Positions 8,274-28,948 are shown, counted from the first letter of the stretch. The stretch is 32,000 bases of DNA from Promethearchaeota archaeon (GCA_016933055.1 JAFGBS010000031.1:30001-62000), one strand, 5' to 3'. The notes: generated from the letters alone by a model not told the origin. A program made the numbers and translations.

Positions 8274-8810
8274 TTAATTTTCCTCTTTTGATTCGAGTTC
8301 TTTTAGCTCTCTAATTTTCTTAATTAACCGGTCAATTTCTATATAATAAAACACCTTTGGTGTTAATTTCACTATATTTTGGTTTTTTTCATATACAATA
8401 AATCCCAATTCGTGTAAATCGTGTAAATCCTTTGCAATGTCTTTTTTATTCCGTAAATCTTGTATCTTCGTTCCGGTAATTGCTGGAGTCTTACTCACAT
8501 ATAAAATCAAAATAGTAAATAACGTTGCGGAAAGACGGGGGGTCAGAACCTTATCTGTAGCACCACCAAAGTTAGATTCCATCTGATCTTGAAAGCCAAT
8601 ATACCAATGAGAATTCATGGGATTAAATTTCACGCTTAAACCTAAAGGGAATATAGTTTTGTTGAATTCTTGTAGCAGATTCCACAATTTATATTCTGCA
8701 TTACGATCCGAAAAACCTAATTTTGAACACAATTCGTCTTTATTCGCTCCTATATTTTGTGCATCCTTCTTCCTTGATAGTAAATATATTAACACTTCAG
8801 CTTCATTCAT
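8274..8810 (-). CDS. KITE-like tandem winged-helix subunit (ScpB/Nse1/MksE-like)
   Basis: Two WH-like halves: (VLIYLL...KDELCSKLG...LLQEFNKTIFPLGLSVKF...WYIG) and (LSATLFTILIL...DLHDLHELGFI...VKLTP). 4-bp overlap with the kleisin gene; last gene of the SMC operon. Confidence 0.7.
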   Translation of the reverse strand: MNEAEVLIYLLSRKKDAQNIGANKDELCSKLGFSDRNAEYKLWNLLQEFNKTIFPLGLSVKFNPMNSHWYIGFQDQMESNFGGATDKVLTPRLSATLFTILILYVSKTPAITGTKIQDLRNKKDIAKDLHDLHELGFIVYEKNQNIVKLTPKVFYYIEIDRLIKKIRELKELESKEEN

Positions 8811-9520
8811 TCGTTTTTCTCATCCTTATATTCTTCCAATCTATTAGTATTTTTAATAAAAACAACCTTCTTTCTCTGAATCAAATACAAACAAAATACA
8901 AATCTTTTGTAGCGAATCTCAGTATTAGTGGTCGTATCTATTATATCAGATAGTTTTTGGGGGAGAGTGGGTAATAACTTTAGCTCAAATGAATTCAATT
9001 CTCTTTCAAAATGAACATCATCAATCAAAAAATCTATTTCTCCCATATTGAATTCCTCTTTAGCAATCTCAGAGAAATCCGGGAACTCTACCGATTCCCA
9101 AATCTTTTTCTTATTAGTTAACTTCACAAAAGAATCGTAAAGAGTATTTAAATTGATATCTTCTATAATGAATGGAGGTTTATACAAAGCTTGGAAGCAT
9201 TCATGCAAAGAATTCTGGGATTCAACTTTAATGATAGACTCAAAATCCTCCTCTCCCCCTATAGCGGAAATATATGCTTGAATATCTTGGATTTTTTTAC
9301 CGAACAAGTCCGAAGAACTCTTAAATTCAGTAACAATTGTCTTTAAATTCTTATTATTAACAATCTCTTGGATAGAATGGAAAATAGGAACAAAATCTAT
9401 GTCTTGGGTAGAAATTTTTCCTAATTGGATATCTTTTTTCAAGTTCTTCAGGTAAATCTCTACATCTCGTAAAGTTCGTAATTGAATTTGTTGTACAGAA
9501 GATGGATTTATCTCATTCAT
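8807..9520 (-). CDS. ScpA-like kleisin subunit
   Basis: N-terminal GKISTQDIDFVPIF resembles ScpA GKIDPWDIDI; C-terminal cap-WH RYKRFVFCLYLIQRKKVVF resembles ScpA V.TFLALLEL.K.G.I; 4-bp overlap with smc. Confidence 0.75.
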   Translation of the reverse strand: MNEINPSSVQQIQLRTLRDVEIYLKNLKKDIQLGKISTQDIDFVPIFHSIQEIVNNKNLKTIVTEFKSSSDLFGKKIQDIQAYISAIGGEEDFESIIKVESQNSLHECFQALYKPPFIIEDINLNTLYDSFVKLTNKKKIWESVEFPDFSEIAKEEFNMGEIDFLIDDVHFERELNSFELKLLPTLPQKLSDIIDTTTNTEIRYKRFVFCLYLIQRKKVVFIKNTNRLEEYKDEKNE

Positions 9521-12500
9521 AAGGGAATAACCGTGCTTACTTCTTCAGATCCATTTTTTGCTATTCCTAATACACAATCTGCAAGATCCACTAGGGTACT
9601 AGATGCATTAGGGGTAATCATAATAAATTGAACCCCATTATCTGTAACATCCTTGATCAATTTTGATACATTCTCGGTATTACTCTTGTCCAAAAACATC
9701 TGTGCTTCATCAAATATACATAGGGGTGAAGGATTCAAGTTCTGGAGAGTTAACATTAAAGTTATTGCAAACAAAGTCTGTTCTCCTCCACTTAAAGTGG
9801 ATAAACTGCGCGATGCCTCATTAAAATGAACGTGGATATCCACTCCAAGCGCTTCAAATTTATCAGTTAAATTAAGCGAACCCTTACGATTAATTCCTAT
9901 TTTTTGGAAACGAGAGTTAATGTTATTTTCAATAGTCCGTAAATGCCCCCTAAATAAGGAAAAATACTGTTCTTGAAGTTTTTCTACGGAAATGTGCGCT
10001 TCTTTAATTTCTATTTCTAATTGTTTCTTTTTTTGGGCACTTCGTTTCAGTTGTTGTTCTAGTTCCTTTTTTCTTTCCAAAATTTGGTCTGTCACATCAT
10101 AATAATCTCGTAACTTCTCGTAAATGACTTTGAGATCATTCTCTACTTCTTCAACTGATCGTTCCTGATAATCTTTTCCAAGTTCTGCCACTTCTATACT
10201 TATATTGTCCACCATTTTCTGCTTTTCATATATTTGAGCTTCAGAATATTCGATTTTTATCTTTATCCTATCAATTGTTTGTATGATGGAATTCAAATTG
10301 TCATGTTCCGTTTGGATGACCTCTTGAATTTTTATATTTTTATCGTTTAATGTTAATTGTTCTCGAGTAATAGATTCAATAGAATTTCGTAATCTCTCCA
10401 ACTCATTGATTGCTTGAAGCATTCTAGTATTACCGCTTTTTAACTTATCTTCATATTTTTCTAGCTCCATTTCATGGGCTTTCAGTTCGGTCGAATAGTT
10501 TTCAATTTTTAATGTATATAGATTCTCTTCCTGTGTCTTGTTTGTAAGATTATTATTCATCTCTTGTATTTTATTATCCAGTCCTTCAAATTTGACTTGG
10601 AATTCTTCAATGAATGCATCCATTTCATCCAAGTTAGCTGGTAATTTCTCTTGAACTTGAATTATTTCATTTTGAATGGAATTAAGTTTCTCTAAGAAAG
10701 AATCCGAATTTGCAATCAAGTTACTTTTAGTTTCCAATAAACTATCTTTTTTATTTATAGTGATGGTCAATTTTTTGTAGTTATACGTAATGATATTGAT
10801 TTTCTGGAGACGTTCCTCATATAATTTAGAAGCTCGCTCTAATTTTGTAAACTGTTGCCGATATTCATCAATTTTTCCCCGATTTTCCATAAGTTGGTCA
10901 TGTAATTTTTTTACTGCGCGTTTTTGTTCAATCGGATTGGAATAACTTTTACCGGAATCTGACGCACGAGATTCCAAAACATATTCATATGAACGGATAA
11001 CGGTGCCATCTAATGCGACTACTCGTCCTTTATGATTATGTTGGTTAATAAAGTCATAACCAACACTCCTATCGTTGACCAATACGGTATTTCGACAAAT
11101 TGACACAAGTACTTTTTTTACATCGTCATGATGAGATAAAGGTGTTATAAAATTCGACAAATAACCGAATACTCCATCTTCTTTAACTATCTCTTTATAG
11201 CTTCGAATTTCCCTATCAAAAGGCTGATATATATTACATCTAGCACCCGTACGCTTTATTAAATCATGAACCAACATGAAGTCTTGCTTATTTTTTGCAA
11301 TGAAGGAATTTAAAACATATTTGCTCAGGATACTATCTACGGCAAGAGAAATTTCGGGATTAAACTCGATAAAATCAATTATAGGACCAATTACATCAAG
11401 ATTGCGGGTCTGAATTTCTTGTATTAAATTTATTAAATTTTGACTTTTCGGCATTTCTTTCATCAAAACAGAACTTTTAAGATGTTCTAACTGTTTTTCT
11501 AAATCCCGATTCTCATTTTCTTTTTGAGAGATGTTCTGGGAGAGTTTTTCTAAAGCAAAAAAAATTTTTTGTTTTTTTTTATTAAGGGATTCTAGTGTAT
11601 TTTTCTCAGGTTCTTGTAAAAACCATTTATCTTTTTCCAATTCCTGTTTAAGGTAACGGATTTCGCTCATTGAATTTTTAATATCGCGTTCAATCGCTTC
11701 AAGTTGTAAGTCGTTCTCTTTCGTTTTATATTCAATCTCTGACTTCTTCTTCTTTAGGTTTTCATAATATTCCATTATATCATGGAATTTCTTTTTTGTT
11801 CGTTGATGAGACTCAAATTCGTCCATTAATGCCTTCCTTTGCTCTTGTAGAACAGAAAACTCAAACTTGTATTTTTTTATTTCAGATAGACAAATTTTCT
11901 GCTCCTCAGTAAATCTTTGCTTTTCAGCAGTCAAAAGCTTGATTTTACTTTTTGCCCTCAAAATTTTATCAGCCAAATTGTCCTTATCGGATTGCCATCG
12001 GCTTATCTCGGCATCCAAATTTCTCTCTTTTACTTTTTCGTCTAACAATGTCTGGGAGAGTTCGGTTATTATCGTAGTATTTTCCTTTATCATAGCTTCC
12101 AAGTTTTGAATTGTACCTTCAATCTTTTCTTTATCATCCTCTAAACTATCAATATTTTGCTCGTAGTTCCCGATCTCAGTTCGGATATTTTTGATTTCCT
12201 CTAGGATCATAACCCGATTTAACCAAGTCCTCTCTTTTTCAAACTGCTCTCGTTGAATTTCTAACTCTTTTTTTTCTTTGAGCCTAACTACTTGGGGTGC
12301 AAGCAATCCAATTTCATATTTTGCTGATTTATCCATCAAATTCAAGCTTTTAATTTGATTATCTAGATCATTGATGGTAGTTTTATTCTCAATGATTTCC
12401 TCACGTAATGGATGCAATCCCAGTCCCCGCTCCAGATAATCACAAATCTGCATTTTTTCCATATTTTTGATGTTTGTGATATTTCCCTGAGATACAAAAG

Positions 12501-12903
12501 CAAATACATTATCGGGATTGACTCCAAAATCTGCAAGAAGATTTTGTACAGTAGAGGCTGTACATTTTTTAAGTTTAGAATCTGCACCAATTTGAATCTG
12601 ATAGAATGGAGATTGCCCTTTAAAAATAGTTCTGCGAATTTTTATTAGAGTTTTTTTATTCCGTAAATGGATTTCCGCATAACCCGCTTCTTGCCCTATC
12701 CGAATAAACTCAGACCACGTTTTTGCCCGGCCATCCTTTTCGTTGGATCCTAAAGAAAACTTGATCCCTTGAAAGATTGTAGATTTCCCTGCTCCATTTG
12801 GACCAGTTATAACCGTGAATCCTTTATGGAAGGGGACTTCATCTACTGCAAAAGAATTAAAATTATGGAGGATAATCCGTTCAAGTATTGGTTTTGTAGC
12901 CAC
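9517..12903 (-). CDS. smc: SMC-family ATPase with Smc5/6-like features
   Basis: Walker A GPNGAGKS, Q-loop FVSQG, long coiled coils, central hinge (IGPIIDFIE...LAVDSIL...SFIAKN...GRVVALDG), signature LSGGEQ, Walker B CIFDEA, D-loop FLD, terminal QFIMITP. GTG start. Confidence 0.95.
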   Translation of the reverse strand: MATKPILERIILHNFNSFAVDEVPFHKGFTVITGPNGAGKSTIFQGIKFSLGSNEKDGRAKTWSEFIRIGQEAGYAEIHLRNKKTLIKIRRTIFKGQSPFYQIQIGADSKLKKCTASTVQNLLADFGVNPDNVFAFVSQGNITNIKNMEKMQICDYLERGLGLHPLREEIIENKTTINDLDNQIKSLNLMDKSAKYEIGLLAPQVVRLKEKKELEIQREQFEKERTWLNRVMILEEIKNIRTEIGNYEQNIDSLEDDKEKIEGTIQNLEAMIKENTTIITELSQTLLDEKVKERNLDAEISRWQSDKDNLADKILRAKSKIKLLTAEKQRFTEEQKICLSEIKKYKFEFSVLQEQRKALMDEFESHQRTKKKFHDIMEYYENLKKKKSEIEYKTKENDLQLEAIERDIKNSMSEIRYLKQELEKDKWFLQEPEKNTLESLNKKKQKIFFALEKLSQNISQKENENRDLEKQLEHLKSSVLMKEMPKSQNLINLIQEIQTRNLDVIGPIIDFIEFNPEISLAVDSILSKYVLNSFIAKNKQDFMLVHDLIKRTGARCNIYQPFDREIRSYKEIVKEDGVFGYLSNFITPLSHHDDVKKVLVSICRNTVLVNDRSVGYDFINQHNHKGRVVALDGTVIRSYEYVLESRASDSGKSYSNPIEQKRAVKKLHDQLMENRGKIDEYRQQFTKLERASKLYEERLQKINIITYNYKKLTITINKKDSLLETKSNLIANSDSFLEKLNSIQNEIIQVQEKLPANLDEMDAFIEEFQVKFEGLDNKIQEMNNNLTNKTQEENLYTLKIENYSTELKAHEMELEKYEDKLKSGNTRMLQAINELERLRNSIESITREQLTLNDKNIKIQEVIQTEHDNLNSIIQTIDRIKIKIEYSEAQIYEKQKMVDNISIEVAELGKDYQERSVEEVENDLKVIYEKLRDYYDVTDQILERKKELEQQLKRSAQKKKQLEIEIKEAHISVEKLQEQYFSLFRGHLRTIENNINSRFQKIGINRKGSLNLTDKFEALGVDIHVHFNEASRSLSTLSGGEQTLFAITLMLTLQNLNPSPLCIFDEAQMFLDKSNTENVSKLIKDVTDNGVQFIMITPNASSTLVDLADCVLGIAKNGSEEVSTVIPL

Positions 12904-12908
12904 AATAT

Positions 12909-14129
12909 CTACCTTTCTGCAATTTTTTGGATACGATCAATGGTTTTTTTTGCATTAGTCAATTTTAATAATGCACGGTTTGGTGCATCTTTAAGAATAA
13001 AAGCGTAATCAGCGAGAATAGTGCGATCTAAATCATCTAATTTTCTCGCTTGATCTATCTTCTCAAGGATAAGGGTTAATTCCTCGAATTTCGTTGCGGC
13101 TGCATATTGATATAGTTGTGAAGAAGTAAAACTATCTAATTCAGCTAATCCTAAACCTTTAAAGGATGTTACAGAATTAGATTGAAATGATCCATCATTT
13201 AGTGGGTGGGTCTCTCGATCATTTTTTCCTACTTGAGGAATTTTAGAATTTGTAAAATCTTTATACGAATTATAACTACTAAGTGGTCGAATTTGATTAT
13301 TTTTGATAAGTTCTGCGAAAATTTCCCCCGTCAATGGAATTTTAGTTAGCAAGGTTCTGTTACTATCGGACGATGGCTCTGTTTCTTGTTCTACTTGCTC
13401 TTCATCCTTTTCTCTCTCTAATTGAGCTTTAAATTCTGTATAGTTAAGAATTTTCCATTGGATGAAGGCAATATCCACTAATCGTTTTAAATCGTTCACA
13501 TTCCATGAATCTTCTGTTAATTCAGATAAATAAGTGATATCAACCGTGTGAATGGCTAAATTTTCTAGTAACCTTTCAAAAATCTCAATACGTTGAATTT
13601 TTGTTGGATAGGGTATAGTAAATACAATATCTAAGTATTCAATGATCTCTTGAGGAATATCATTATGTATAATTCTTAGAAGAAAGAAATAATCAGGGTT
13701 CTGCTTTAGCATTTCTCTAATTCGCTTTACTAAGTGGATCACCTTTAGTTTTTCTTCAACGGAGTCAAAATCTGGATTATTCAGATAAATAATTTGTTTT
13801 TGAGGAACCGATCCGACTGACACAGATGCTTTTTGCTCACTTTCTTCAGAATCGAGTTGATTGATGCTTTTACTTAAGTATTCAAGCTGCTTTTCATACT
13901 CAGAATTGTCCCAATTTAATTCCAAAACACTGAACATATTGAAAATTTCATCTTTGATGAATTCACAAAATTCTGAACCCAAACTATCCTTTACAAGAAT
14001 AATCTGAGGGATGATGTCAGATTTATCGTATTTTTCATCTGAAAACATCTCGAACATAGAAATTATATGCGTATACACGTCCAAATTGCATAATAGTTTA
14101 GTACCACTTTCGTTCATAATTATGGTCAT
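12909..14129 (-). CDS. Degenerate (probably inactive) AAA+ ATPase-fold protein, first gene of SMC operon
   Basis: Recognisable AAA lid LDIVFTIPYPTKIQRIEIFERLL...VDITYLSELTEDSWNVNDLKRLVDIA; Walker A position reads IILVKDSLGSEF and Walker B position IIYLNNPD; 5-bp gap to smc. Confidence 0.75.
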   Translation of the reverse strand: MTIIMNESGTKLLCNLDVYTHIISMFEMFSDEKYDKSDIIPQIILVKDSLGSEFCEFIKDEIFNMFSVLELNWDNSEYEKQLEYLSKSINQLDSEESEQKASVSVGSVPQKQIIYLNNPDFDSVEEKLKVIHLVKRIREMLKQNPDYFFLLRIIHNDIPQEIIEYLDIVFTIPYPTKIQRIEIFERLLENLAIHTVDITYLSELTEDSWNVNDLKRLVDIAFIQWKILNYTEFKAQLEREKDEEQVEQETEPSSDSNRTLLTKIPLTGEIFAELIKNNQIRPLSSYNSYKDFTNSKIPQVGKNDRETHPLNDGSFQSNSVTSFKGLGLAELDSFTSSQLYQYAAATKFEELTLILEKIDQARKLDDLDRTILADYAFILKDAPNRALLKLTNAKKTIDRIQKIAER

Positions 14130-14785: not shown

Positions 14786-16048
14786 ATGGGAAAATTAGCA
14801 AGACGAGTAGCTATAGTCGGGGCTGGTATGTCGAAATTCGGTGCCCACTATCCAATCAAACAAAACCGTGATCTGTGGCAGGACGCTCTCATTAACACGA
14901 TTGAGTCTGTAGATCATGGAGTAAATTTACAAAAGGATGTTGAAGAACTTTATTTAGGTAACTTTTCTGCAGACTTGTTTAATCATGAAGCACATCTCGC
15001 ACCATTAATGGCGCAATTAGCGGGAATAAATCCCAAACCTGCAGCTCGGATTGAAGCTGCATGTTGTTCAAGTGGCATAGCTATGAGATATGGTGTTTTA
15101 GCGGTTGCATCTGGAATACATGACTTCGTTTTGGCAGGTGGGATTGAGACCATGACAGAAGTACCCACCGTTGATGTTACAGACTCATTGGCTGCAGCAG
15201 CGGATACAAGATTAGAATATCCGGCTGGTGCCACTTTTCCTGGTTTGTATGCGGCAGTAGCGACTGCGCATATGCATAAATACGGGACAACTGAGGAAAA
15301 TTTCTTTGACGTTGCGATAAAAAATTATGATAATGGTGCAGAAAATCCTTATGCTCAAGTACAAATGACCATTGAACAAGTGATAGAGGGTAAAATCACC
15401 AAAGCGAAAAAACGTGGTTTAGAACCTCCATCATGGAATAATCCCTATGATTTTTTGCGATCGGAATCAAATCCCTATATAGCTTATCCATTACGTTTAT
15501 TTGATTGCTCATTGGTTACTGATGGAGCAGCATGTGTATTGTTAGCCTCGGAAGACATTGCCAGAAAATACACAGATACACCCATTTGGATCACCGGAAC
15601 TGGTCAAGGTAGTGATACTCTAGCTTTACATGATCGTGATTCTTTGACCTCATTTCTATCAGCGAGAACTGCAGCACAGACTGCGTTTAAAATGAGTGGA
15701 TTAGAACCAAAGGACATTCAAATTGCTGAAGTTCATGATTGCTTTACAATAGCGGAGTTGGTCGCATTGGAGGATCTTGGTTTTTATAAACCTGGAGAAG
15801 CTGCAGCTGCAGTATCTGCGGGTGAAACAAAACGAGATGGAATCCTTCCAATCAATACAAGTGGAGGATTAAAAACAAAAGGACATCCCGTGGGAGCTAC
15901 GGGTACCGCTCAAGCAGTTGAGATTTTCAAACAAATGCGAGGTATCGCAGAACGTAATAGACAAGTGAAAAAGGATATAGAAAGAGCTTTGTCTCATAAT
16001 GTAGGAGGTAGTGGGGCATCTTCGGTTGTCCACATATACGAGAAATAG
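14786..16048 (+). CDS. Archaeal/SCP2-type thiolase (acetyl-CoA acetyltransferase)
   Basis: RRVAIVGAGMSKFG, catalytic Cys in IEAACCSSG, EVHDCF, NTSGGLK, GHPVGATG, HNVGG. Confidence 0.95.
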   Translation: MGKLARRVAIVGAGMSKFGAHYPIKQNRDLWQDALINTIESVDHGVNLQKDVEELYLGNFSADLFNHEAHLAPLMAQLAGINPKPAARIEAACCSSGIAMRYGVLAVASGIHDFVLAGGIETMTEVPTVDVTDSLAAAADTRLEYPAGATFPGLYAAVATAHMHKYGTTEENFFDVAIKNYDNGAENPYAQVQMTIEQVIEGKITKAKKRGLEPPSWNNPYDFLRSESNPYIAYPLRLFDCSLVTDGAACVLLASEDIARKYTDTPIWITGTGQGSDTLALHDRDSLTSFLSARTAAQTAFKMSGLEPKDIQIAEVHDCFTIAELVALEDLGFYKPGEAAAAVSAGETKRDGILPINTSGGLKTKGHPVGATGTAQAVEIFKQMRGIAERNRQVKKDIERALSHNVGGSGASSVVHIYEK

Positions 16049-16057
16049 GAGGAAAAT

Positions 16058-16486
16058 ATGATGAATAATGAAGAATTTACCATAAAGAATTATTTCGATT
16101 TTTTCGCTGAAAATAAACTGATGGGGAATAAATGCAATAATTGCGGTATTATGCACATTCCTCCCAAAAAAATCTGTAATAAATGTTACGGGACCAAACT
16201 TGAATGGATTGAATTTAGCGGAAAAGGGACTTTACAAACCTATAGTCTGATTGGAGTAGGTGCACGTTACTTCGTAAACCAAGGGTATAAAATTGAGAAT
16301 CCCTACTGTTTTGGTATCGTTCAATTGGAGGAAGGTCCTTGTATCTCAGGACATATTGTAGGACCAGAAGGTTTTGAACAAAATCCTAAAAAATTCAAAA
16401 TTGGAATGCCCTTAAAAGCGAAGTTTTTACATGTAGAGACCGAAGGGATAGAACCTAAAATCGATTTAGGATTTGAACCCATATAA
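16058..16486 (+). CDS. DUF35 Zn-ribbon/OB-fold thiolase partner protein
   Basis: CNNC and CNKC zinc ribbon, SGKGTLQTYS, PYCFGIVQLEEG, KIGMPL; directly after the thiolase with GGAGG SD. Confidence 0.92.
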   Translation: MMNNEEFTIKNYFDFFAENKLMGNKCNNCGIMHIPPKKICNKCYGTKLEWIEFSGKGTLQTYSLIGVGARYFVNQGYKIENPYCFGIVQLEEGPCISGHIVGPEGFEQNPKKFKIGMPLKAKFLHVETEGIEPKIDLGFEPI

Positions 16487-16570: not shown

Positions 16571-17245
16571 ATGGCTGCAGCTGGATTAACCGATTATCTA
16601 ATTCTATTAGGAATTGTCGTTGGAATGACAGTAATTTCACAATTGTTTCGATACTTTTTTGGGATGCGTCCAGAAGAAAGCATGGATATGCAACAAAAAC
16701 TGAAAGACATGCAAAATGAGATGGTGCAAGCGAGAGAAGATCCCGTACAATTACAACGATTACAACAGGAAGCTATGCAAACATATAGAACTATGATGCG
16801 GAAGCAACTCATCCCAAATTGTATATACATGATCCTATTTTTTGGATTATGGTATATAGTCGGTTTAATTTTCTCTGATACCCAATTCTTCGGAATGGAA
16901 GGAGATCGCACTTTTTTCTTTCCCTATTTGATATTCTCCTTTAGTTTAAGTGGGATAATATGGTTGATACGATATTTAATCAGACAAAACAAAAAGAAGA
17001 AAGGGTTATTACCCGACGAAAATTATGATGCATCGTTAGATCGTGGAATTAAATCTGGCGTTACTTTTTCTACGGGGTGGGCAAGGGGCTTATCTCCAGA
17101 ATTGCAGCAAATGAGAACTGATTTGCAAGAAAAACGGGATAAAGGGGAACTACCTCACGATATAGATATCGATGCTGAGATACAAAAGATTGCAGAAGAA
17201 GAAGAAGAAGATATCAGAAACTGGAAAAAACGATTAGAATCCTAA
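16571..17245 (+). CDS. DUF106/EMC3/TMCO1-like (Oxa1 superfamily) membrane protein with charged C-terminal tail
   Basis: TM1 (LILLGIVVGMTVISQLF), Gln/Met-rich coiled-coil hairpin (MQQKLKDMQNEM...LQRLQQEAMQ), TM2 (LIPNCIYMILFFGLW), TM3 (YLIFSFSLSGIIW). Confidence 0.7.
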   Translation: MAAAGLTDYLILLGIVVGMTVISQLFRYFFGMRPEESMDMQQKLKDMQNEMVQAREDPVQLQRLQQEAMQTYRTMMRKQLIPNCIYMILFFGLWYIVGLIFSDTQFFGMEGDRTFFFPYLIFSFSLSGIIWLIRYLIRQNKKKKGLLPDENYDASLDRGIKSGVTFSTGWARGLSPELQQMRTDLQEKRDKGELPHDIDIDAEIQKIAEEEEEDIRNWKKRLES

Positions 17246-18120
17246 AGTTTGAAAGAGGTAACTTTAGGTCGTGAATCCAGTGTGGGGTATATAAGTCCAG
17301 GTAATGGTGGCATTGAATTATATACTTCATCGATATCTATGGTTGCAAAATTAACTCCTCGTTTTTTCTTCCATTCCACTAATCTGCCATTCACCATTAT
17401 ATTCTCCATTTCCATATTCATGGCAAATGCAGAAATATGAGCCCCAAGGGGAATTTTCTTGAGTTCCTCCCCGAATTGAGATAAGGTAAATGATAGTTTT
17501 CCTCGATCTGGTGCGCGCAATTGGAAGCACGGGATGATGATCGGATATCCATCTTCATCAATCCAGCTGAGGAATTTTGGATTGATTGGACCGTTAAACA
17601 ACTCAAATGGGAGAACTGGCAGTTTTTTTTCTGCATTCTTATCTCGTAATGCTCCAACGCCTATCATGTTTGCGATGATTCCCTTTACAATCCCTCCTAA
17701 TCCCAAAAGTCTGACAGGAGTTACTGCAATTACATCATTATAATATGCAGTATGTGCATTCATATAAGTATTATAACGAAGCAAATCCATTCTTGAAAAG
17801 TAATCTAAATCTTCACCCTCCTTAGAGAGGTGTGTAAACTTAACCTTCGTTTGAATGAATTTAAAAGGCATCTCGGCTGTCATCATTGCGATTCCTTGCC
17901 GTGGGTTCTCTTTTACGTACTTCTTACTCTTTCCTTCCGTGAATTGTCCCCAAACAAGCTTATCTTTCGCAATTGCGCGGTTAAAAGCGATAAACGTAAT
18001 ATGAGGCCATCCTCGCGGGTCAATTGTTGAAACAAATTTTGCTGCAAACTCTAATCGTGAAAGTTTGTATGCATCATCATCAAATTCTTCATTCCATGTA
18101 GATTTTGCTTTTTTAGGCAT
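17242..18120 (-). CDS. Tandem pyridoxamine-5'-phosphate-oxidase-like (FMN-binding split barrel) protein
   Basis: Two repeats: KFVSTIDPRGWPHIT...GKSKKYVKENPR and KFLSWIDEDGYPIIIP...YNSMPP; co-oriented 26 bp after the activase. Confidence 0.75.
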   Translation of the reverse strand: MPKKAKSTWNEEFDDDAYKLSRLEFAAKFVSTIDPRGWPHITFIAFNRAIAKDKLVWGQFTEGKSKKYVKENPRQGIAMMTAEMPFKFIQTKVKFTHLSKEGEDLDYFSRMDLLRYNTYMNAHTAYYNDVIAVTPVRLLGLGGIVKGIIANMIGVGALRDKNAEKKLPVLPFELFNGPINPKFLSWIDEDGYPIIIPCFQLRAPDRGKLSFTLSQFGEELKKIPLGAHISAFAMNMEMENIMVNGRLVEWKKKRGVNFATIDIDEVYNSMPPLPGLIYPTLDSRPKVTSFKL

Positions 18121-18146
18121 TTATATCACTTTTTTTCATCAATTCA

Positions 18147-19157
18147 TTAATTTTTTTGTACACCACAAGAGGGAGGTGCAAATTTTGAAATTTTCCTTTG
18201 TGAATCTTCAGTTTCAACAGTTTTCGTCAACCCTGACCATTTCACATTTTTTACTCCTGTAGATTTCGCAATTTCAAAAAAATATTCCATTTCTTCGGGT
18301 AACAATAAATCTAAGTCGTTGCATGCCCATTCCATGTCCATACGAGCATACTTTGCTTTGGCTAGATTATTAAATGCTAATAAATCCCAGCGATCAATTT
18401 TATTATCTAATTCATTGACGATAAAATTTCCAATTTCTCTAATATTTTTTTCTGACGCCGTATAAGTTGGAATTATCGGAGTTCTTACCCATATTTGTCG
18501 ATTTTCCTTAACAAGCCATTTGATATTTTCTAAGATTTGTGTATTTGATACACCTGTAAATTTTTGGTGCTTAATATCATCAAATTCCTTAAGATCATAC
18601 AACCATAAATCTACATAGGGAAAAATTTGTGCATATTTCTCTTTGGGTAGGTATCCGCTTAAATCTAAAGCAGTGTGAAATCCATCTTCCTTGCATCTTT
18701 TGAAAAATTCCGTTACAAAGTCAGATTGAACAGCAGCTTCTCCCCCGGAAGCCGTTATCCCCCCTCTTGATTTCACATAATACGCTCTGTCCTTCGCAAC
18801 TTCATTAAGTAGATCTTCAACTGACCAATATTCCCCTAGCATTCGCAATGCCGTTCCAGGGCACGCTTCTACGCATTCTCCACAAGCAATGCACTCATCT
18901 CGATCGATATGCATTCCTTCTTCATCGAGAGATAAAGCTTGTTGTTTACATAAATCAATACATGTCCTGCAACCGATGCACTTCACTTGGAACCATTGGA
19001 TTGAGGGCTTTTTGAATAGAGATTCTGGATTATGACACCATACACACCGAAGGGGGCACATTTTAAAAAAAACTGTTGTACGAATCCCTGGTCCGTCTTC
19101 AGTGGACATTTTCTGTATCTCAAATATGTACCCTTGTATGGATTCCATCATTTTCAT
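18147..19157 (-). CDS. Glycyl-radical enzyme activating enzyme (radical SAM, with 2x[4Fe-4S] ferredoxin insert)
   Basis: DGPGIRTTVFFKMCPLRCVWCHNPE (CxxxCxxC); CIGCRTCIDLC and CIACGECVEAC; GGITASGGE; IWVRTPIIP. Start could be 19157, 19151 or 19148. Confidence 0.95.
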   Translation of the reverse strand: MKMMESIQGYIFEIQKMSTEDGPGIRTTVFFKMCPLRCVWCHNPESLFKKPSIQWFQVKCIGCRTCIDLCKQQALSLDEEGMHIDRDECIACGECVEACPGTALRMLGEYWSVEDLLNEVAKDRAYYVKSRGGITASGGEAAVQSDFVTEFFKRCKEDGFHTALDLSGYLPKEKYAQIFPYVDLWLYDLKEFDDIKHQKFTGVSNTQILENIKWLVKENRQIWVRTPIIPTYTASEKNIREIGNFIVNELDNKIDRWDLLAFNNLAKAKYARMDMEWACNDLDLLLPEEMEYFFEIAKSTGVKNVKWSGLTKTVETEDSQRKISKFAPPSCGVQKN

Positions 19158-19181
19158 CTATCGGATAAAATTAAAGAAAAA

Positions 19182-21689
19182 TTAAAAATTGTGCATCTCA
19201 CGTTTTATTATCTCGTCTTGTAATTCTCTTCCTATAGCTACAAAATATGTATTATAACCAGTTACCCTTACAAGTAAATGTGGATAATTTTCAGGGTGTT
19301 TCTGTGCATCTATTAGCATATTAGCATCTAGAATGTTAATTTGTAGAGCAGTCCCCCCATTTTCAATATATCCACGTAGGTATGCTTTGAATTTCTCTTT
19401 GGATTCTGGTTCTCGTAACATACTCGGATTAAATGTAATGGTGTGAGAGGCTCCATTTGGCAAGTAATTCACATATTTACCATCGTCAGTTTTCCCACCC
19501 AATGCATTTCCCACGGAATTTGTTACTGATGTTGGACCATTAATATCTGCACCGTTTGTGGGACAAATCGCGTTCGAAAGGAATGTGTTTGCCAATCTTC
19601 CATTAGGAGTAGCAGGAGTATAAGCAGCATCCTCTCCTGCCCAATAATTCCATGATAGCATACCACCGCGGAATTGGAAATCAGTATCCGTTTTGTATTT
19701 GAAAGTTTCTGAAGACCAAGTTTCCATGATGTTGCGAGCAAGCTCATCCGCTTCATCCAAATCATTACCAAATTTTGGACCTCGATTTTTTAGAGTGGTT
19801 TGCATGATAATATATTCTCTTTTACCTTGGAAGTTATTCACTAACGCTTCCTTCAATTCTGCAATCGTAAATTTCTGTTCATCATACACAAAATGCTTTA
19901 TTGCGAGAAGGGAATCCACGAGTGTCGCAAATCCAACTCCTTCGATGGTAATAAATCGGATTTCAGGACCTCCATTACGAATATCTAATCCTTGCTCAAC
20001 ACATCCTCGAACTAAAGTTGAAAGGTATGGAGTTGGCAGAAAGGCAGCACGTAAATTCTCGGTTTTATTATATACTTCGACCGTATATTGAATAATATGT
20101 TTTATCTGTTGTTCCCAAGCATTCCAAAATTCCTCCCAAGTTGCGAATTCTTCGGGATTTCCCGTTTTGGGTCCGAATTGAATCAGATTCTTTTCAGGTT
20201 TACCTTTAAAGAATTTGCTGGCACCATTCCAAAGAGTGAGTTCAACACTTTTTGCCAGATTAGGATTGCAGTTAACAGTCCCGGATCTATCATTTCCTTG
20301 CATCGTGTTTTCTAAACAACCAACACACGCATAATCCCACGCATCTTCTTTTGGAATTCCTTCAAGTACCATTCCTTCGATCGACCGTTCATCAAAATTT
20401 AATATGAAAGGTGCGCCTTGAGATCGCGTTATCATATCTACTAGTGTATCCAAAAGTTCATCGGGAGTGTTTCGATGTAAACGAACGTTCGGTTTTGGTT
20501 CTAATATTGGACTCCATTCATCAATTACTTCCAACATGGTATAGGTTAGTTCATTAGAAAGGTCTTCTCCATTAGGACCGCAACCGGATAACGTTAACAA
20601 TTGACCAAATCCTGCAGTTATACCTTGGTTGCCTCCTACACGCATTTGTCCGTCATATGCAGTGTTGCAATGGAACCAAAATGACCCTAAAATGTCTTTT
20701 GCGAATTCTTTGGTGATTAAATCTTTTTCTAGAACATCTTTCTTATAATAAGGATATAAATATTCATCAATACGACCAAAGCTATCGCCGGGACCAGGAT
20801 AGGATTCCTCCGCCATGATTAGCATATGTGCCATCCATAATGATTGCACAGCTTGCCAGAAGGTTTGGGCAGGTTCCCATGGAACGATTTCCAAGTTCTT
20901 TGCCATTTGCTCTAATTCCCCTTTACGCTCCAGATCTTCTGTTTCTTCTGCCACACGACGACATTCTTCCGCATATTTTTCAGCTAATTTCTTGGGTATC
21001 AAAGTTGCATGAATCATAGCCCGGACTTCTTCACCTTTAGCACCTCGTTTTTCGCGATCTGAGAGTTCATTATACTTATCCTGAGCTAGTTTGTGCACGT
21101 ATTTGAACCCTTTATTTATAATTGTGGGAAAATCTGGAATCAAATGACCACCTGTGGCACCTAAATTACCAAATCCGTATTCATGGAATTTCCAAACCGA
21201 AGGTCGGATATCTTTTACTAATTTTTTGTTAAATTCTTCCTCTTCCTTTTGTGTGAAACACTTGCTTAATTGCAAATTAAAACGACTTCCAGCAAGCAAT
21301 GAGGGTCCAACAATTTCTTGAGGAGTATTGTTCACCATCGCTTCCTCAAAAAAAATCATTCGCCGTTCGGGAAGTGATTTTTCCCAGAAAATTTTTGGTA
21401 ATTTGACGGGTTTACCCATTAAATCTATGGAAGAACCAAAAGGTCCTCGTTTCTTCTTCCCCATAAACCCCATTGCTTCGGGTACGATGTAAAAATCTAA
21501 CTCCGCCCATATTCTGTCCCATTCGACGCCTGTGGAGTACGGGTCATATTCATTATTCCACTCACGATCTAAACCCCTAAAATAATAGTCTCGCAACCAT
21601 TTCGAACGTGGAGATAGATCATGTGGTTCTGCAAGATTGTACTTGCTTTTCAAAGAAGTAGTTTCTTGTGGTTCTGAAGCATTACTCAT
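19182..21689 (-). CDS. Glycyl radical enzyme (PFL2/eliminase-like superfamily), substrate unknown
   Basis: Cys loop DYACVGCLEN; glycyl loop LLVRVTGYNTYF; PWEPAQTFWQAVQ, GRIDEYLYPY, KFGND, ATPNGR. ATG at 21689 preferred over the TTG at 21701. Confidence 0.95.
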   Translation of the reverse strand: MSNASEPQETTSLKSKYNLAEPHDLSPRSKWLRDYYFRGLDREWNNEYDPYSTGVEWDRIWAELDFYIVPEAMGFMGKKKRGPFGSSIDLMGKPVKLPKIFWEKSLPERRMIFFEEAMVNNTPQEIVGPSLLAGSRFNLQLSKCFTQKEEEEFNKKLVKDIRPSVWKFHEYGFGNLGATGGHLIPDFPTIINKGFKYVHKLAQDKYNELSDREKRGAKGEEVRAMIHATLIPKKLAEKYAEECRRVAEETEDLERKGELEQMAKNLEIVPWEPAQTFWQAVQSLWMAHMLIMAEESYPGPGDSFGRIDEYLYPYYKKDVLEKDLITKEFAKDILGSFWFHCNTAYDGQMRVGGNQGITAGFGQLLTLSGCGPNGEDLSNELTYTMLEVIDEWSPILEPKPNVRLHRNTPDELLDTLVDMITRSQGAPFILNFDERSIEGMVLEGIPKEDAWDYACVGCLENTMQGNDRSGTVNCNPNLAKSVELTLWNGASKFFKGKPEKNLIQFGPKTGNPEEFATWEEFWNAWEQQIKHIIQYTVEVYNKTENLRAAFLPTPYLSTLVRGCVEQGLDIRNGGPEIRFITIEGVGFATLVDSLLAIKHFVYDEQKFTIAELKEALVNNFQGKREYIIMQTTLKNRGPKFGNDLDEADELARNIMETWSSETFKYKTDTDFQFRGGMLSWNYWAGEDAAYTPATPNGRLANTFLSNAICPTNGADINGPTSVTNSVGNALGGKTDDGKYVNYLPNGASHTITFNPSMLREPESKEKFKAYLRGYIENGGTALQINILDANMLIDAQKHPENYPHLLVRVTGYNTYFVAIGRELQDEIIKREMHNF

Positions 21690-21765
21690 AATCCTAACCA
21701 AACCTTAAATACTCTAATCATAAAATAGGATTGAGAATTAATAATAGTTGCGAAATAAAATTTAT

Positions 21766-21781
21766 GGAAACTGGAGTTTCC
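21766..21781. promoter_or_regulatory. Perfect palindrome, candidate TetR operator
   Basis: GGAAACT-GG-AGTTTCC in the divergent GRE/TetR intergenic region, about 77 nt upstream of the GRE ATG. Confidence 0.55.
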
Positions 21782-21949
21782 TTAATAATTAGGATCGAAT
21801 CTACAATATTTAACGGAGAAGCGGAAGAAAAATACAACAATCTTTTAACTTTCCTTAATTTATAACAAAGTAAAAGATCATTCAAACCTCTCAAAACCAT
21901 CCCATCGAATGTTTTTTATAATCACAAAGCAGATTATCCATAGTGATTT

Positions 21950-22510
21950 TTGCCGATGTCAAGTTTCCAGAAAAAACAAGAAATTGCGGACGCCTTTATG
22001 GAATATTTTCGTAAATTTGGGATGAAAAAAACCATAGTAAATGATGTCGTAAAAAGTCTGGGAATGTCCAAAAAGACCGTTTATAAGTATTTTAAAGGTG
22101 GAAAAGAAGAAGCTTTATACTATTTTTTTCGCAAAGTTGCAGATTTTTATGTTAAAAATCTTGAGGATGACCTTAATTCCCTACCAACTGCAGAAAAAAA
22201 ACTCGTTTATGTTTTACAACAAATTTATGAAATTTCCCGTCCGCATATAGAAGCTAATGTCGCCGATGAAGAAGATTATGTAGTAGAAAATGAAATTGTG
22301 GGTTCTGCATTTCGGGACGCATATCAAAACATTGTAAAAAAACTATTAAAAATTGGGATGAAGACAGGGGAATTTAAGAATATAGATGTGGATCTTACAA
22401 TACACTTAATCTACGGCATGATATTGGAAAGTATGAAAATTATTCATCAAAATCACAAACGGAAAATCAAGGATGACGTTATCGATGCCGTAATGAAAAT
22501 TCTACAGTGA
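21950..22510 (+). CDS. TetR/AcrR-family transcriptional regulator
   Basis: IADAFMEYFRKFGMKKTIVNDVVKSLGMSKKTVYKYFKGGKE HTH; C-terminal GMKTGEF. Alternative ATG at 21956. Confidence 0.9.
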   Translation: MPMSSFQKKQEIADAFMEYFRKFGMKKTIVNDVVKSLGMSKKTVYKYFKGGKEEALYYFFRKVADFYVKNLEDDLNSLPTAEKKLVYVLQQIYEISRPHIEANVADEEDYVVENEIVGSAFRDAYQNIVKKLLKIGMKTGEFKNIDVDLTIHLIYGMILESMKIIHQNHKRKIKDDVIDAVMKILQ

Positions 22511-26575: not shown

Positions 26576-28948
26576 ATGCCTAATCCAAGCTTTACGCCAT
26601 CATGGACAACTCTTTCCTATTCTCTTTTTGATAAATATGTACCATTAATAAAACGATGGGCGAAGAACTCAAAATCGACTCAATCTACTACTCAAAGCGA
26701 TATTACTGACATATTTGTGAAGATATTTTATATCACAACTACAGAACTGTTAATGCAACATGATTACTCAGCTTTTTTCCATCAAGATTTTCTTAAGAAA
26801 TACAATTTGGATGATTCTCATCTAAATCATCCAATTACAACTTTTCCACAATTATTTGATATTTCTTCGTCCCAAGCAAATGATCATGAACTTATAAGCT
26901 TTTATGGAATGTTAATTCATCGCCTATTTAAATCCCTGGCTAAAAATTTTACAATCTCGTTAAATAGTTCCTTAAATTCCCCTAAGAATCCCTCCTTCAT
27001 GAAATCTTATGAATTGAAGATGCTCGTTCAGATGTGTTACTCTGACTTTTATCATTATCAAAAGTCTTTTTTCGAGTTTGGGGGTATTCCAGCACTCTTT
27101 TCAGAATTTATCGCACTACTTTTTGATAAATTATCCACATTTAAGACTAGAAGGATTATTGCCTCACAGAAGAAGCAAACTGGTAGTATTTTTACCCCAA
27201 TATGGATAATTGAACTAATATTAAAGCGATTGCAATCCAAAATTGATCAGCTCCAATCCCCCCTAAAACTAGCTGATCTATCAGTAGGATATGGAGGATT
27301 TTTTGAAGCCTTTATTGGTTTATCCAAATCCGAGAACTCAAACCTAATTTTATATGGATATGATACCGATCCTTTCAAAATCGATATAATACGTCTAAAT
27401 TTTTTGATACGAAAACAAGAAAAGCATTGGAATCATATCCAATATGATTTGAATCTTTGTGATGCGTTATTACAAGTTCCTTCCGAGAGATATGACATTT
27501 TAGTAGGAAATCCCCCCTGGGGTGCTCGTGTCAATAAAGCAAAAATATTGAAAATTGAGGAATTGACTGAATTTACGGTAAAACAATTTGATTCATTCGG
27601 TTTATTTCTTATTAGGAACATCCTTGCACTCAGAGAAAGCGGATACTTGTACTTAGTTTTACCTGAGACTATATTATTAAATCCAAATTATGAAAACCTC
27701 CGAAAATTCATCTTAGATCATACCACTATTTTAGAAATCATCCATTTAGGAGAAGGTGTTTTTAAGGGAGTGAATATGCCTGCTATCATCTTAGGATTGA
27801 AAAACCGAAAAGCAGAATCCCCCCATCAATTGAAAATATATCAAAATATTACTGAAAATTCAGAATTGAATATAATAACCGCTCAAAATAATAAAATACC
27901 TAACAATATTCCCCATTATCTTCTCCGTTTCCAATCCGACTTTCTCTCTAATCCCGACTACTCTTTTGATATATTCACTACTACCCAAGATAGGCAAATA
28001 ATAGAGAAAATTGAAAAAATGGATTGCTATCGTTTACGAGACATGGTTGATAATAGTCGTGGTGTAGAAATTGGAAAAAAGGGCGAAGTAATTCAATGTT
28101 ATCATTGCAAAGTATGGATGCCGACTCCTCAATGGTCTCTAGATCCTTATTCAGGGCAAAGATTTACGGTTTGTCAAATATGCAAACATAAAATAAATCT
28201 AAATGAGCTCATCCATCGAGATAGAATTATACTTAGTAGTAAACCTGAAAATAGCGTACCATGCTCCAAAATCATCCTTGGAGAAGACATTCAACGTTAT
28301 GTAATCACGGGGAATAATTACATTATTCTAAATCGTCGAGGAATAAAATACAAAAGTGCGAAATTGTACAACAAGAAAAAAATACTGGTAAGGAAAACCT
28401 CAAAGGAATTACTAGGCGTTATCGATTATGATAACTCTTATACGATCCAAGTAGTATATCAGTTTTCATTAAAAGAGGAATTCGATAGCTCTCCTTACTT
28501 ATTGGAATTTATACTAGGCGCCCTTTCCTCCCGAATCATCCAATTCTACTATGCAAAAAAATACCAGTATCTAAAACGTAAAAATTTTCCTCACCACATC
28601 CAAAAAAATATCTTAAACATCCCTATTCCAAAAATTGTTACTTCGTCCACATCGTCTATACATTATTTAGAAGTTGTAATGTGCACAATTTTTCTCATGT
28701 GGATCTCTTATTATCTAGAACATCATGATTTCAACAAATCTATTCAATCAGTACTGTATAATTTCTTGGATGAAAACTTACAAATGTTACAAAACGGTCC
28801 CCTACTTACCCAATTTACCAAAAATTTCAACAATTCCCCGCTACAACTTATGAATAATCCTTCTAAACTCCTAGATCCGAAAGGTATGTCTACTTTTTTT
28901 CAAGAAATGCTCGATGATACAGTGGAGAGAGTATTTCTCGCATTATAA
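26576..28948 (+). CDS. Amino-DNA methyltransferase (N6-adenine, TaqI/Eco57I-like gamma class) with TaqI-C-like TRD
   Basis: Motif X GSIFTP, SAM motif I LADLSVGYGGFF, motif IV ILVGNPPWG, FDSFGLF, LVLPETIL; TRD-like GEDIQRY...KKILVRKT. Confidence 0.9.
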   Translation: MPNPSFTPSWTTLSYSLFDKYVPLIKRWAKNSKSTQSTTQSDITDIFVKIFYITTTELLMQHDYSAFFHQDFLKKYNLDDSHLNHPITTFPQLFDISSSQANDHELISFYGMLIHRLFKSLAKNFTISLNSSLNSPKNPSFMKSYELKMLVQMCYSDFYHYQKSFFEFGGIPALFSEFIALLFDKLSTFKTRRIIASQKKQTGSIFTPIWIIELILKRLQSKIDQLQSPLKLADLSVGYGGFFEAFIGLSKSENSNLILYGYDTDPFKIDIIRLNFLIRKQEKHWNHIQYDLNLCDALLQVPSERYDILVGNPPWGARVNKAKILKIEELTEFTVKQFDSFGLFLIRNILALRESGYLYLVLPETILLNPNYENLRKFILDHTTILEIIHLGEGVFKGVNMPAIILGLKNRKAESPHQLKIYQNITENSELNIITAQNNKIPNNIPHYLLRFQSDFLSNPDYSFDIFTTTQDRQIIEKIEKMDCYRLRDMVDNSRGVEIGKKGEVIQCYHCKVWMPTPQWSLDPYSGQRFTVCQICKHKINLNELIHRDRIILSSKPENSVPCSKIILGEDIQRYVITGNNYIILNRRGIKYKSAKLYNKKKILVRKTSKELLGVIDYDNSYTIQVVYQFSLKEEFDSSPYLLEFILGALSSRIIQFYYAKKYQYLKRKNFPHHIQKNILNIPIPKIVTSSTSSIHYLEVVMCTIFLMWISYYLEHHDFNKSIQSVLYNFLDENLQMLQNGPLLTQFTKNFNNSPLQLMNNPSKLLDPKGMSTFFQEMLDDTVERVFLAL

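Follow-up and report, generated by a model that had tools for sequence, protein, structure and literature searches.

Which reaction does the glycyl radical enzyme (GRE) encoded by a conserved Asgard gene set catalyze, and is the protein encoded next to it a part of that enzyme? The question is raised by a 32,000-nucleotide stretch of a Promethearchaeota archaeon genome (GCA_016933055.1, JAFGBS010000031.1:30001-62000; hereafter the window, with positions counted from its first letter), in which the genes for a GRE, its radical SAM activating enzyme (activase), and a tandem split-barrel protein of PNPOx-like fold (the partner) follow one another on the same strand. None of the archaeal GREs of the pyruvate formate-lyase (PFL)-like type has been assigned a function, which a 2026 review singles out as an explicit gap (PMC13450708). 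A first-pass annotation of the window had proposed a dehydratase- or isomerase-type GRE whose product is handled by the partner. Our analysis supports, with moderate confidence, a reading that departs from this proposal in part: the operon would encode a heteromeric, previously uncharacterized GRE under the control of a ligand-responsive repressor, and the enzyme would be neither a 2-oxoacid formate-lyase nor an X-succinate synthase. The feature itself is real and is conserved across two domains of life.

The gene order and the gaps of 24 bp between the GRE and activase genes and of 26 bp between the activase and partner genes, as first annotated, were confirmed at all coordinates (Table 1), and the gaps suggest that the three genes are co-transcribed. 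Likewise, no open reading frame (ORF) for a small iron-sulfur (Fe-S) subunit was found among the three operon genes. Read from its ATG, the GRE is as long as database entry P0004; a TTG in the same frame at 21701 is an alternative start that would add four residues (19182-21701), and the residue numbers of the motifs (457-465 and 812-820) are counted from this TTG. The closest relatives of all three proteins were Asgard proteins, from Promethearchaeota/Lokiarchaeia and from metagenome-assembled genomes (MAGs) labelled Hel-, Hod-, Odin-, Thor-, Heimdall-, and Hermodarchaeota. The host genome comprises 3.76 Mb in 36 contigs and is 91% complete, and DNA of the window was present in a sediment metagenome run and in none of the RNA runs listed.

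The GRE matched PF02901 (2.7e-121), but only from profile position 156 (residue 183) onward, and PF01228 (4.9e-22), and the RVxG[YF] radical motif of the superfamily was present as RVTGY at residues 812-816. Because residues 1 to approximately 180 matched no GRE profile and no PDB chain, the N-terminus is divergent, as had been noted on first inspection. The Cys loop YACVGCLEN and the Gly loop RVTGYNTYF, both reported in the first-pass annotation, were located at residues 457-465 and 812-820, respectively. Pairwise alignments placed Cys462 on Cys433 of glycerol dehydratase, Cys434 of HypD, and Cys489 of CutC, and placed Cys462 and Glu464 on the GCVE motif of these enzymes. The pattern VGCLENT..G..R.GTV was invariant in Asgard and bacterial members, and Cys462, Glu464, and His186 were invariant across 30 family members spanning 46-86% identity, with Asgard orthologues being 62-86% identical to this GRE. 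All eliminases and isomerases retain the CXE motif, whose Glu forms a hydrogen bond with the substrate hydroxyl, as the 2026 review states (PMC13450708). With its C-x-E motif and His186, the GRE therefore bears the hallmarks of eliminases and isomerases, with a substrate that would be hydroxylated and probably anionic, in agreement with the type of GRE proposed at the outset. Cys459 of the YACVGC segment was considered as a second catalytic cysteine and rejected; it occurs in Asgard members only, with Ser, Pro, or Ala at this position in bacterial members, and is therefore not a family feature.

Judged by curated hidden Markov model cut-offs and PDB alignments, on which its class assignment rests, the GRE is a member of no characterized family. 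Every score against the curated NCBIfam GRE equivalogs was far below the cut-off, including those for HypD (381 vs. 1100), HpsG (366 vs. 1000), HpfG (353 vs. 1000), and CutC (327 vs. 1050), and the glycerol-dehydratase/PFL2 subfamily model TIGR01774 gave 413 vs. a cut-off of 678. The best PDB matches were glycerol dehydratase (2.9e-93) and HypD (2.1e-88), with approximately 25% identity to all solved GREs. The predicted fold had template-modeling (TM) scores of 0.75-0.80 to solved GREs, and the dehydratases, HypD, and CutC were about equally distant (22-27% identity). Substrate-binding residues of the known enzymes were replaced: the diol-binding His281, Ser282, and Asp447 of glycerol dehydratase by Pro304, Gly305, and Val476, Asp278 of HypD by Pro304, and Arg189 and Gln193 of IslA, mapped by alignment offset, by Ala182 and His186. 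A characterized GRE of high identity with all specificity residues conserved, which the first-pass annotation had listed as a finding that would count against its proposal, did not emerge from these comparisons.

The nearest known systems are the GRE 1,2-eliminases and isomerases, comprising the B12-independent glycerol and propanediol dehydratases, HypD, CutC, IslA/HpsG, YbiW/PflD, and HplG. The present GRE shares with them the 10-stranded barrel, the single Cys in C-x-E, the same His, and an activase with two extra ferredoxin-like clusters. It differs from them in its low sequence identity, in an N-terminal region of approximately 150 residues of its own, in its linked second protein, and in its own invariant loops (SYPGPGxSFGR, GCLENTxxGNDRSGTV, and FRxGMLSWNYW), which include the invariant residues Arg472 and Arg678. 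The characterized eliminases and isomerases are all bacterial and consist of a single subunit.

The same gene bears another name in the cultured archaeon Prometheoarchaeum syntrophicum MK-D1, where the partner homologue is DSAG12_02702 and the GRE encoded two genes from it corresponds to DSAG12_02704. In Supplementary Table 4 of Imachi et al. (2020), the latter gene is entered as 'Pyruvate--formate lyase', with an RPKM (reads per kilobase per million mapped reads) of 251, and the text of that study builds a '2-oxoacid-formate lyase' route to formate on it. PFL is the current Asgard annotation of the gene and is assumed in metabolic reconstructions of Promethearchaeota; nearly all Promethearchaeota MAGs are credited with PFL in a 2025 preprint. 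Some loci have thiolases and a formate-dehydrogenase-like molybdopterin oxidoreductase nearby, and the module is self-contained. PFL and TdcE share the superfamily and the Gly-radical motif with our enzyme. Nevertheless, identification as a pyruvate or 2-oxoacid formate-lyase is very improbable. In the superfamily as reviewed in 2026, two cysteines, both of them essential, are a feature of PFL and TdcE alone (PMC13450708), and the two adjacent cysteines are absent here, the residue preceding Cys462 being an invariant Gly in the 30 members; because this test fails, the enzyme should not be called a PFL. Scores against PFL models were very low (TIGR01255, 82.2 vs. a cut-off of 994.2 bits; NF007437, 279.6 vs. 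1109; PRK09983, 280 vs. 1109), E. coli PFL aligned over the C-terminal 200 residues only (E 2e-15), and none of the four GREs in the host genome has a Cys-Cys pair.

The activase is the cognate radical SAM enzyme of the adjoining GRE. It contains CX3CX2C at residue 34 and two ferredoxin-like Cys clusters, and it passed the GRE-activase subfamily model TIGR02494 with 316 bits vs. a cut-off of 174. Its score against the BssD model TIGR04003 was 198 bits vs. a cut-off of 496, which bears on a further label in the literature. GREs of Hermodarchaeota and other Asgard archaea have been assigned to alkyl- or benzylsuccinate synthases (Ass/Bss) on the basis of 29-33% identity and a single Cys (PMC8163825), and P0100 and P0106, the members from Hermodarchaeota, share 65-66% identity with this GRE. 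However, a single Cys is the rule in nearly all GREs. The solved α chains of benzylsuccinate synthase and of (1-methylalkyl)succinate synthase (MASS) were the weakest full-length matches (5e-38 and 2.5e-53, respectively, vs. 1e-93 for dehydratases), genes for β and γ subunits resembling high-potential iron-sulfur proteins (HiPIPs) were absent from the operon, and the signature of C-x-E plus His is that of eliminases and isomerases. These observations, together with the low BssD score, make a succinate synthase extremely unlikely, and at the sequence level both published labels, PFL and alkyl/benzylsuccinate synthase, fail the tests of their defining features.

We next consider the partner, for which a fold search was needed because its sequence gave only marginal matches in the PDB (E 0.002-0.04). 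Its Pfam match to PNPOx_N (PF01243) was below threshold (17.4 vs. 28.1 bits); some of its homologues carry a precomputed PF01243 match. The AlphaFold model, with a predicted local distance difference test (pLDDT) score of 87 and a predicted TM score of 0.86, consisted of two tandem split β-barrels. Each barrel matched FMN-binding, PNPOx-like, HupZ, and F420-reductase structures (including 3IN6 and 2HTD) with a Foldseek probability of 1.0, and the TM scores to the target were 0.65-0.75 for the two halves, so that the fold assigned in the first-pass annotation holds. Weak profile similarity to HupZ and 3IN6 (E 0.002-0.007) covered a D-x-x-G-x-P turn and an (S/T)-(K/R) motif at a helix start. The helix start that carries GxSK is the usual site of the flavin phosphate in the split-barrel fold; only the first barrel keeps this phosphate-type motif, and a conserved Cys cluster is lacking. 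The fold and the GxSK motif suggest that the partner may bind flavin mononucleotide (FMN) in its first barrel. To our knowledge, Clostridia do not use F420; because the family also occurs in Clostridia, F420 is unlikely to be its general cofactor. The PNPOx-like proteins compared here (D. vulgaris FMN-binding protein, Swol_0183 [3IN6], HupZ, and mycobacterial F420 reductases) are homodimers of approximately 120-150 residues, whereas the partner consists of two diverged, fused barrels with an added, conserved C-terminal tail, which was of low confidence in the model of the partner alone. Among the papers searched, none mentioned a glycyl radical together with PNPOx, or a glycyl radical enzyme together with a split barrel.

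The partner differs from these PNPOx-like proteins also in that its gene was linked to a GRE in all loci sampled. Scanning species-representative genomes yielded 51 loci, 45 of which hold a GRE ORF. The partner lay inside the fetched stretch in 31 of these 45 loci, including those of P. syntrophicum MK-D1 (L004), Lokiarchaeum ossiferum (L025), and Harpocratesius (L020), and in all 31 it was downstream of a GRE of this family. Two Clostridia MAGs (L036 and L041) are also among these 31, with 52-55% identity for the GRE and 32-33% for the partner. Most of the remaining loci without the partner were cut by contig ends. In five genomes the flanks extended to 10 kb and the partner was outside them; four of the five have it elsewhere, in two cases 13-20 kb downstream of the GRE on the same contig. 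A profile search of 1.8 billion cluster representatives yielded 383 partner-family clusters at 50% identity, and six distant representatives, found at nine places, were beside a GRE at all nine, usually with an activase as well. In other Asgard families, the order GRE-activase-partner was observed in eight of eight genomes (identity 43-63% for the GRE and 23-48% for the partner, the latter only 23-28% in seven of them), and further bacterial loci with enough contig showed the linkage in three of three. Conservation of the PNPOx-like gene beside GRE homologues, on which the first-pass annotation had made its proposal depend, thus extends over archaea and bacteria. The partner was detected in 63 of 201 genomes of an Asgard sample, among them 32 of 41 genomes of the neighboring family of the same order, and in only 6 of 401 genomes of the phylum to which a Clostridia MAG belongs. 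The three-gene set travels together in approximately 50 loci, which belong to most Lokiarchaeales, to other Asgard families, and to a few anaerobic bacteria. The host genome encodes four GREs and three GRE activases and contains a single partner gene, which adjoins this GRE; this single copy, together with the linkage, indicates that the partner belongs specifically to this GRE subfamily and does not serve GRE activation in general.

The physical relationship of the two proteins was addressed by predicting a complex between the full-length partner and residues 1-705 of the GRE, from separate alignments for the two chains; for reasons of size, the model did not include the radical domain (706-835). 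The interaction score from predicted aligned errors (ipSAE) was 0.86, 0.87, and 0.85 in the runs vs. 0.00 for the best control. The ipSAE mark is reached by 58 of 80 solved complexes and by 2 of 110 mismatched pairs, counts that hold only roughly here because author-made alignments were used. The runs agreed in at least 85% of contacts, with a partner pLDDT of at least 86. On the GRE side, the predicted interface comprises residues 31-128 of the N-terminal region and two loops, 347-353 and 681-689. Both loops flank strands that in other GREs line the active site. When the GRE is modeled alone, segment 353-360, next to the first loop, is disordered; the second loop comes immediately after the FRxGMLSW strand, the counterpart in alignments of active-site strands in glycerol dehydratase, HypD, and IslA. 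On the partner side, the interface involves the invariant residues F60, G63 (next to GxSK), Y116, Y119, P271, and P272, and the C-terminal tail YNSxPPxxGxIYP.

This model supports binding, and we predict that the partner is a bound subunit on the N-terminal region of the GRE. Known multi-subunit GREs are benzylsuccinate synthase (α-β-γ), MASS (α-β-γ-δ), and hydroxyphenylacetate decarboxylase (HPAD; α-γ). Their catalytic subunits need small accessory subunits, all of them HiPIP-like or rubredoxin-like, which shield patches of the surface, act as gates to the substrate channel, or exert control over the glycyl radical domain (PMC13450708). No complex of a GRE with a split-barrel protein is known, and because the review reports only these two kinds of subunit, it is unlikely that the prediction reproduces a complex already solved. 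As in those enzymes, the putative accessory subunit is encoded in the operon of the catalytic GRE. Unlike the HiPIP-like 4Fe-4S or rubredoxin-like subunits, the partner is a tandem split barrel of 290 residues, of a fold that binds flavin or heme, predicted to dock on N-terminal helices, and, if bound as predicted, it would represent a third structural type of GRE accessory subunit.

Alternatively, the partner could be a free-standing flavoenzyme, dependent on FMN or F420, that acts on the product released by the GRE, in the manner in which P5C reductase acts after HypD. In favor of this, its fold is that of FMN/F420-dependent reductases and oxidases, its gene accompanies the GRE in every sampled locus, its GxSK motif is of the phosphate type, and many of its conserved polar residues lie away from the predicted interface. 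Against it, the prediction places the partner on the GRE through an invariant C-terminal tail with an ipSAE of 0.86 vs. 0.00 for the best control, and consistent linkage in archaea and bacteria with parallel divergence (GRE 45% and partner 25% identity) is more typical of subunits; since Clostridia are not known to use F420, the F420-dependent form is unlikely for the family as a whole. We regard a free-standing enzyme as an unlikely alternative. The two readings are compatible in that a bound subunit could also act on the product. Hence, of the role first proposed for the partner, the tie to the GRE stands, and its place merely downstream of the GRE gives way to that of a predicted bound subunit.

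A different role would be that of a dedicated low-potential electron donor, replacing flavodoxin, or of an adaptor for the activase; the partner would reduce the 4Fe-4S cluster of the activase and thereby enable installation of the glycyl radical. The PFL activase of E. coli uses flavodoxin (PMC13450708). The D. vulgaris FMN-binding protein was among the structural matches of the partner, and in at least seven loci the activase and partner genes adjoin while other genes separate them from the GRE. However, two further GRE-activase pairs of the host genome lack a partner of this kind, and the genome has only one partner gene in total. Moreover, five loci (L037, L039, L042, L044, and L060) keep the partner beside the GRE with the activase apart or outside the stretch, and the prediction places the partner on the GRE. 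A donor or adaptor function thus appears improbable. A Pfam search for flavodoxin in the host genome returned two weak matches.

Returning to the heteromeric GRE as the preferred reading, the following mechanism can be proposed. The activase would install the radical on Gly815, from which a thiyl radical would be formed on Cys462. The Cys462 thiyl would abstract hydrogen from the carbinol carbon of a small anionic hydroxy compound, Glu464 would deprotonate the hydroxyl, and His186 would assist the departure of a β leaving group, corresponding to eliminase or isomerase chemistry. The β subunit (the partner) may gate or stabilize the α subunit, as do the small subunits of benzylsuccinate synthase and HPAD. 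It would probably hold FMN in its first barrel at the interface and could thereby couple the radical step to two-electron redox or to electron delivery. A more far-reaching form of this idea, which we advance only tentatively, is that the flavin-bearing split-barrel subunit is positioned at the entrance to the active site and that the thiyl step is coupled to flavin redox, in which case the enzyme would found a new GRE class with a net reductive or oxidative reaction.

Several observations weigh against this picture. The flavin part is weakened by the sub-threshold PNPOx_N match and by the fact that several partner invariants are explained by the interface and not by a cofactor. The complex was predicted without the glycyl radical domain and with author-made alignments. 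Interface residues were not conserved above the protein average (GRE, 0.64 vs. 0.71; partner, 0.68 vs. 0.66), so that conservation adds no independent support. The substrate residues His281, Ser282, and Asp447 of glycerol dehydratase are not kept, and the leaving group is thus not indicated. Finally, gene neighborhoods varied among the Asgard and bacterial loci and revealed no coherent pathway hinting at a substrate.

The control of the operon provides some indication of the substrate. Upstream of the GRE lies a palindrome (Table 1) of which the window contains a single copy, where zero would be expected by chance. Its core was found at the same upstream place in nine other Asgard loci, including those of MK-D1 and L. 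ossiferum; the arms were invariant amid divergent flanks, and three loci had a second, degenerate copy. The palindrome is probably a repressor operator, as far as its sequence and placement can tell. A divergent TetR gene was located upstream of the GRE in this window and also in five of these nine loci (L001, L002, L004 [MK-D1], L006, and L028). Bacterial members have a GntR/FadR-type regulator immediately upstream (L036, L041, and L053), overlapping the GRE start in two of them, and one has an AraC-PocR regulator. The GntR/FadR family mostly senses carboxylates. Given the conserved operator and the regulators, the operon looks inducible by a small molecule. The invariant Arg472 and Arg678 and the GntR/FadR (FCD-type) regulators of bacterial members suggest an anionic substrate, and we weakly favor a carboxylate-bearing hydroxy compound.

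Table 1. Features of the GRE operon and its upstream region in the window
Feature	Position	Strand	Basis or remark
GRE catalytic (α) subunit	19182..21689	-	835 aa from ATG 21689; PF02901 and PF01228
GRE activating enzyme, radical SAM with two extra 4Fe-4S motifs	18147..19157	-	336 aa; TIGR02494
Tandem split-barrel (PNPOx-like) partner, proposed β subunit	17242..18120	-	292 aa; model and Foldseek
Family-specific N-terminal region of the GRE, approximately residues 28-128 from ATG; predicted partner docking surface	21330..21620	-	Conserved within family; interface prediction
GGHLIP with His186, equivalent to glycerol dehydratase His164 and HypD His160	21135..21152	-	Pairwise alignments; invariant in family
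Family-specific active-site loop SYPGPGxSFGR; Y, P, G, G, S, G, and R invariant	20772..20804	-	Alignments; takes the place of His281/Ser282 of glycerol dehydratase and Asp278 of HypD
Cys loop YACVGCLENTMQGNDRSGTV: Cys462 (20316-20318), Glu464 (20310-20312), invariant Arg472	20274..20333	-	Alignment
Gly loop RVTGYNTYF, radical glycine Gly815 (19257-19259)	19242..19268	-	PF01228; LLVRVTGY in all members
GxSK motif of partner, helix start in barrel 1	17911-17952	-	Alignment
Invariant C-terminal tail YNSxPPxxGxIYP of partner	17281-17334	-	Alignment
Palindrome TTATGGAAACT-GG-AGTTTCCTTAA (core GGAAAC-N4-GTTTCC)	21762..21785	.	Approximately 80 bp upstream of GRE start
Divergently transcribed TetR-family regulator	21950..22510	+	PF00440; candidate palindrome binder

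Genes near the operon recur in part among Asgard loci. The recurrent neighbors include thiolase, 3-hydroxyacyl-CoA dehydrogenase, enoyl-CoA hydratase, sulfatase, an NMO-like FMN enzyme, DUF447, rubrerythrin, a TrxR-like flavoprotein, molybdopterin oxidoreductase, and amidohydrolase. Much of this recurrence is lineage synteny, as blocks with orc1/cdc6 and xerC recur alongside; bacterial contexts of the GRE were heterogeneous. In seven loci (L015, L016, L040, L003, L021, L038, and L045), 3.5-8 kb of other genes lie between the GRE and the activase-partner pair. Among their products are thiolase, 3-hydroxyacyl-CoA dehydrogenase, enoyl-CoA hydratase, a 540-aa amidohydrolase, an MFS_2 transporter, and a formate-dehydrogenase-like molybdopterin oxidoreductase with an Fe-S subunit. 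A 233-aa DUF447 protein is encoded directly downstream of the partner in seven Asgard loci (L007, L008, L013, L019, L033, L021, and L038). Two loci, L016 and L050 (DATKTW010000103.1 and DATKTW010000078.1), come from a MAG labelled Candidatus Nanopelagicaceae bacterium and encode a GRE with 65% identity; their contigs share gene order with the Asgard loci L015 and L040 and are probably mis-binned Asgard contigs.

The three further GREs of the host genome (L061-L063) are encoded at C15:183077-185023, C17:332508-334487, and C11:22072-23793, and none has a Cys-Cys pair. One is HypD-like (GCVESGAFGRE) and one lies in a 982-aa open frame (GCVEPTSVGK); the third has GCVD in place of GCVE and gave no RVxG[YF] match in the scan, and may be a non-canonical member.

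Elsewhere in the window, a 224-aa ORF without a Pfam match (16571-17245, plus strand) is convergent with the partner gene, the two ends overlapping by 4 bp. It is preceded by a thiolase (420 aa) and a DUF35/ChsH2_C OB-fold protein (14786-16486, plus strand), an archaeal thiolase-DUF35 pair without an adjoining HMG-CoA synthase gene; other thiolase types recur close to the GRE operon in other Asgard loci. A four-gene operon on the minus strand (8274-14129) encodes a 406-aa protein of no family, a 1128-aa SMC/Rad50-like ATPase (PF02463; PADLOC mad3, 7.9e-34; LmuB, 4e-27; JetC, weak), and two proteins of 237 and 178 aa of no family. It may represent an SMC-type defence or condensin module, and L001, the closest relative, shares its first two genes. 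A 128-aa ORF of no family precedes a gene on the plus strand (26576-28948) for a 790-aa N6-adenine DNA methylase, which carries Eco57I and TaqI_C specificity domains and resembles a type IIG restriction-modification enzyme.

The family described here is the most widely conserved GRE in the order that holds the cultured Asgard archaea. Its MK-D1 orthologue underlies the formate-lyase step in a model that argues for syntrophic formate transfer at the origin of eukaryotes, and related genes have been used to claim hydrocarbon degradation by Asgard archaea. Should the more far-reaching form of our reading hold, with the radical step coupled to flavin redox, the family would perform a type of reaction that no PFL-like GRE is known to perform; this enzyme, and not PFL, would then be the conserved GRE of Lokiarchaeia, and the formate-producing 2-oxoacid formate-lyase branch of the MK-D1 syntrophy model would lose its only assigned gene. 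The family constitutes a large unexplored GRE clade, whose bacterial members may prove easier to express; with the conserved operator and the TetR/GntR regulators at hand, the substrate can be approached in practice by way of the inducer.

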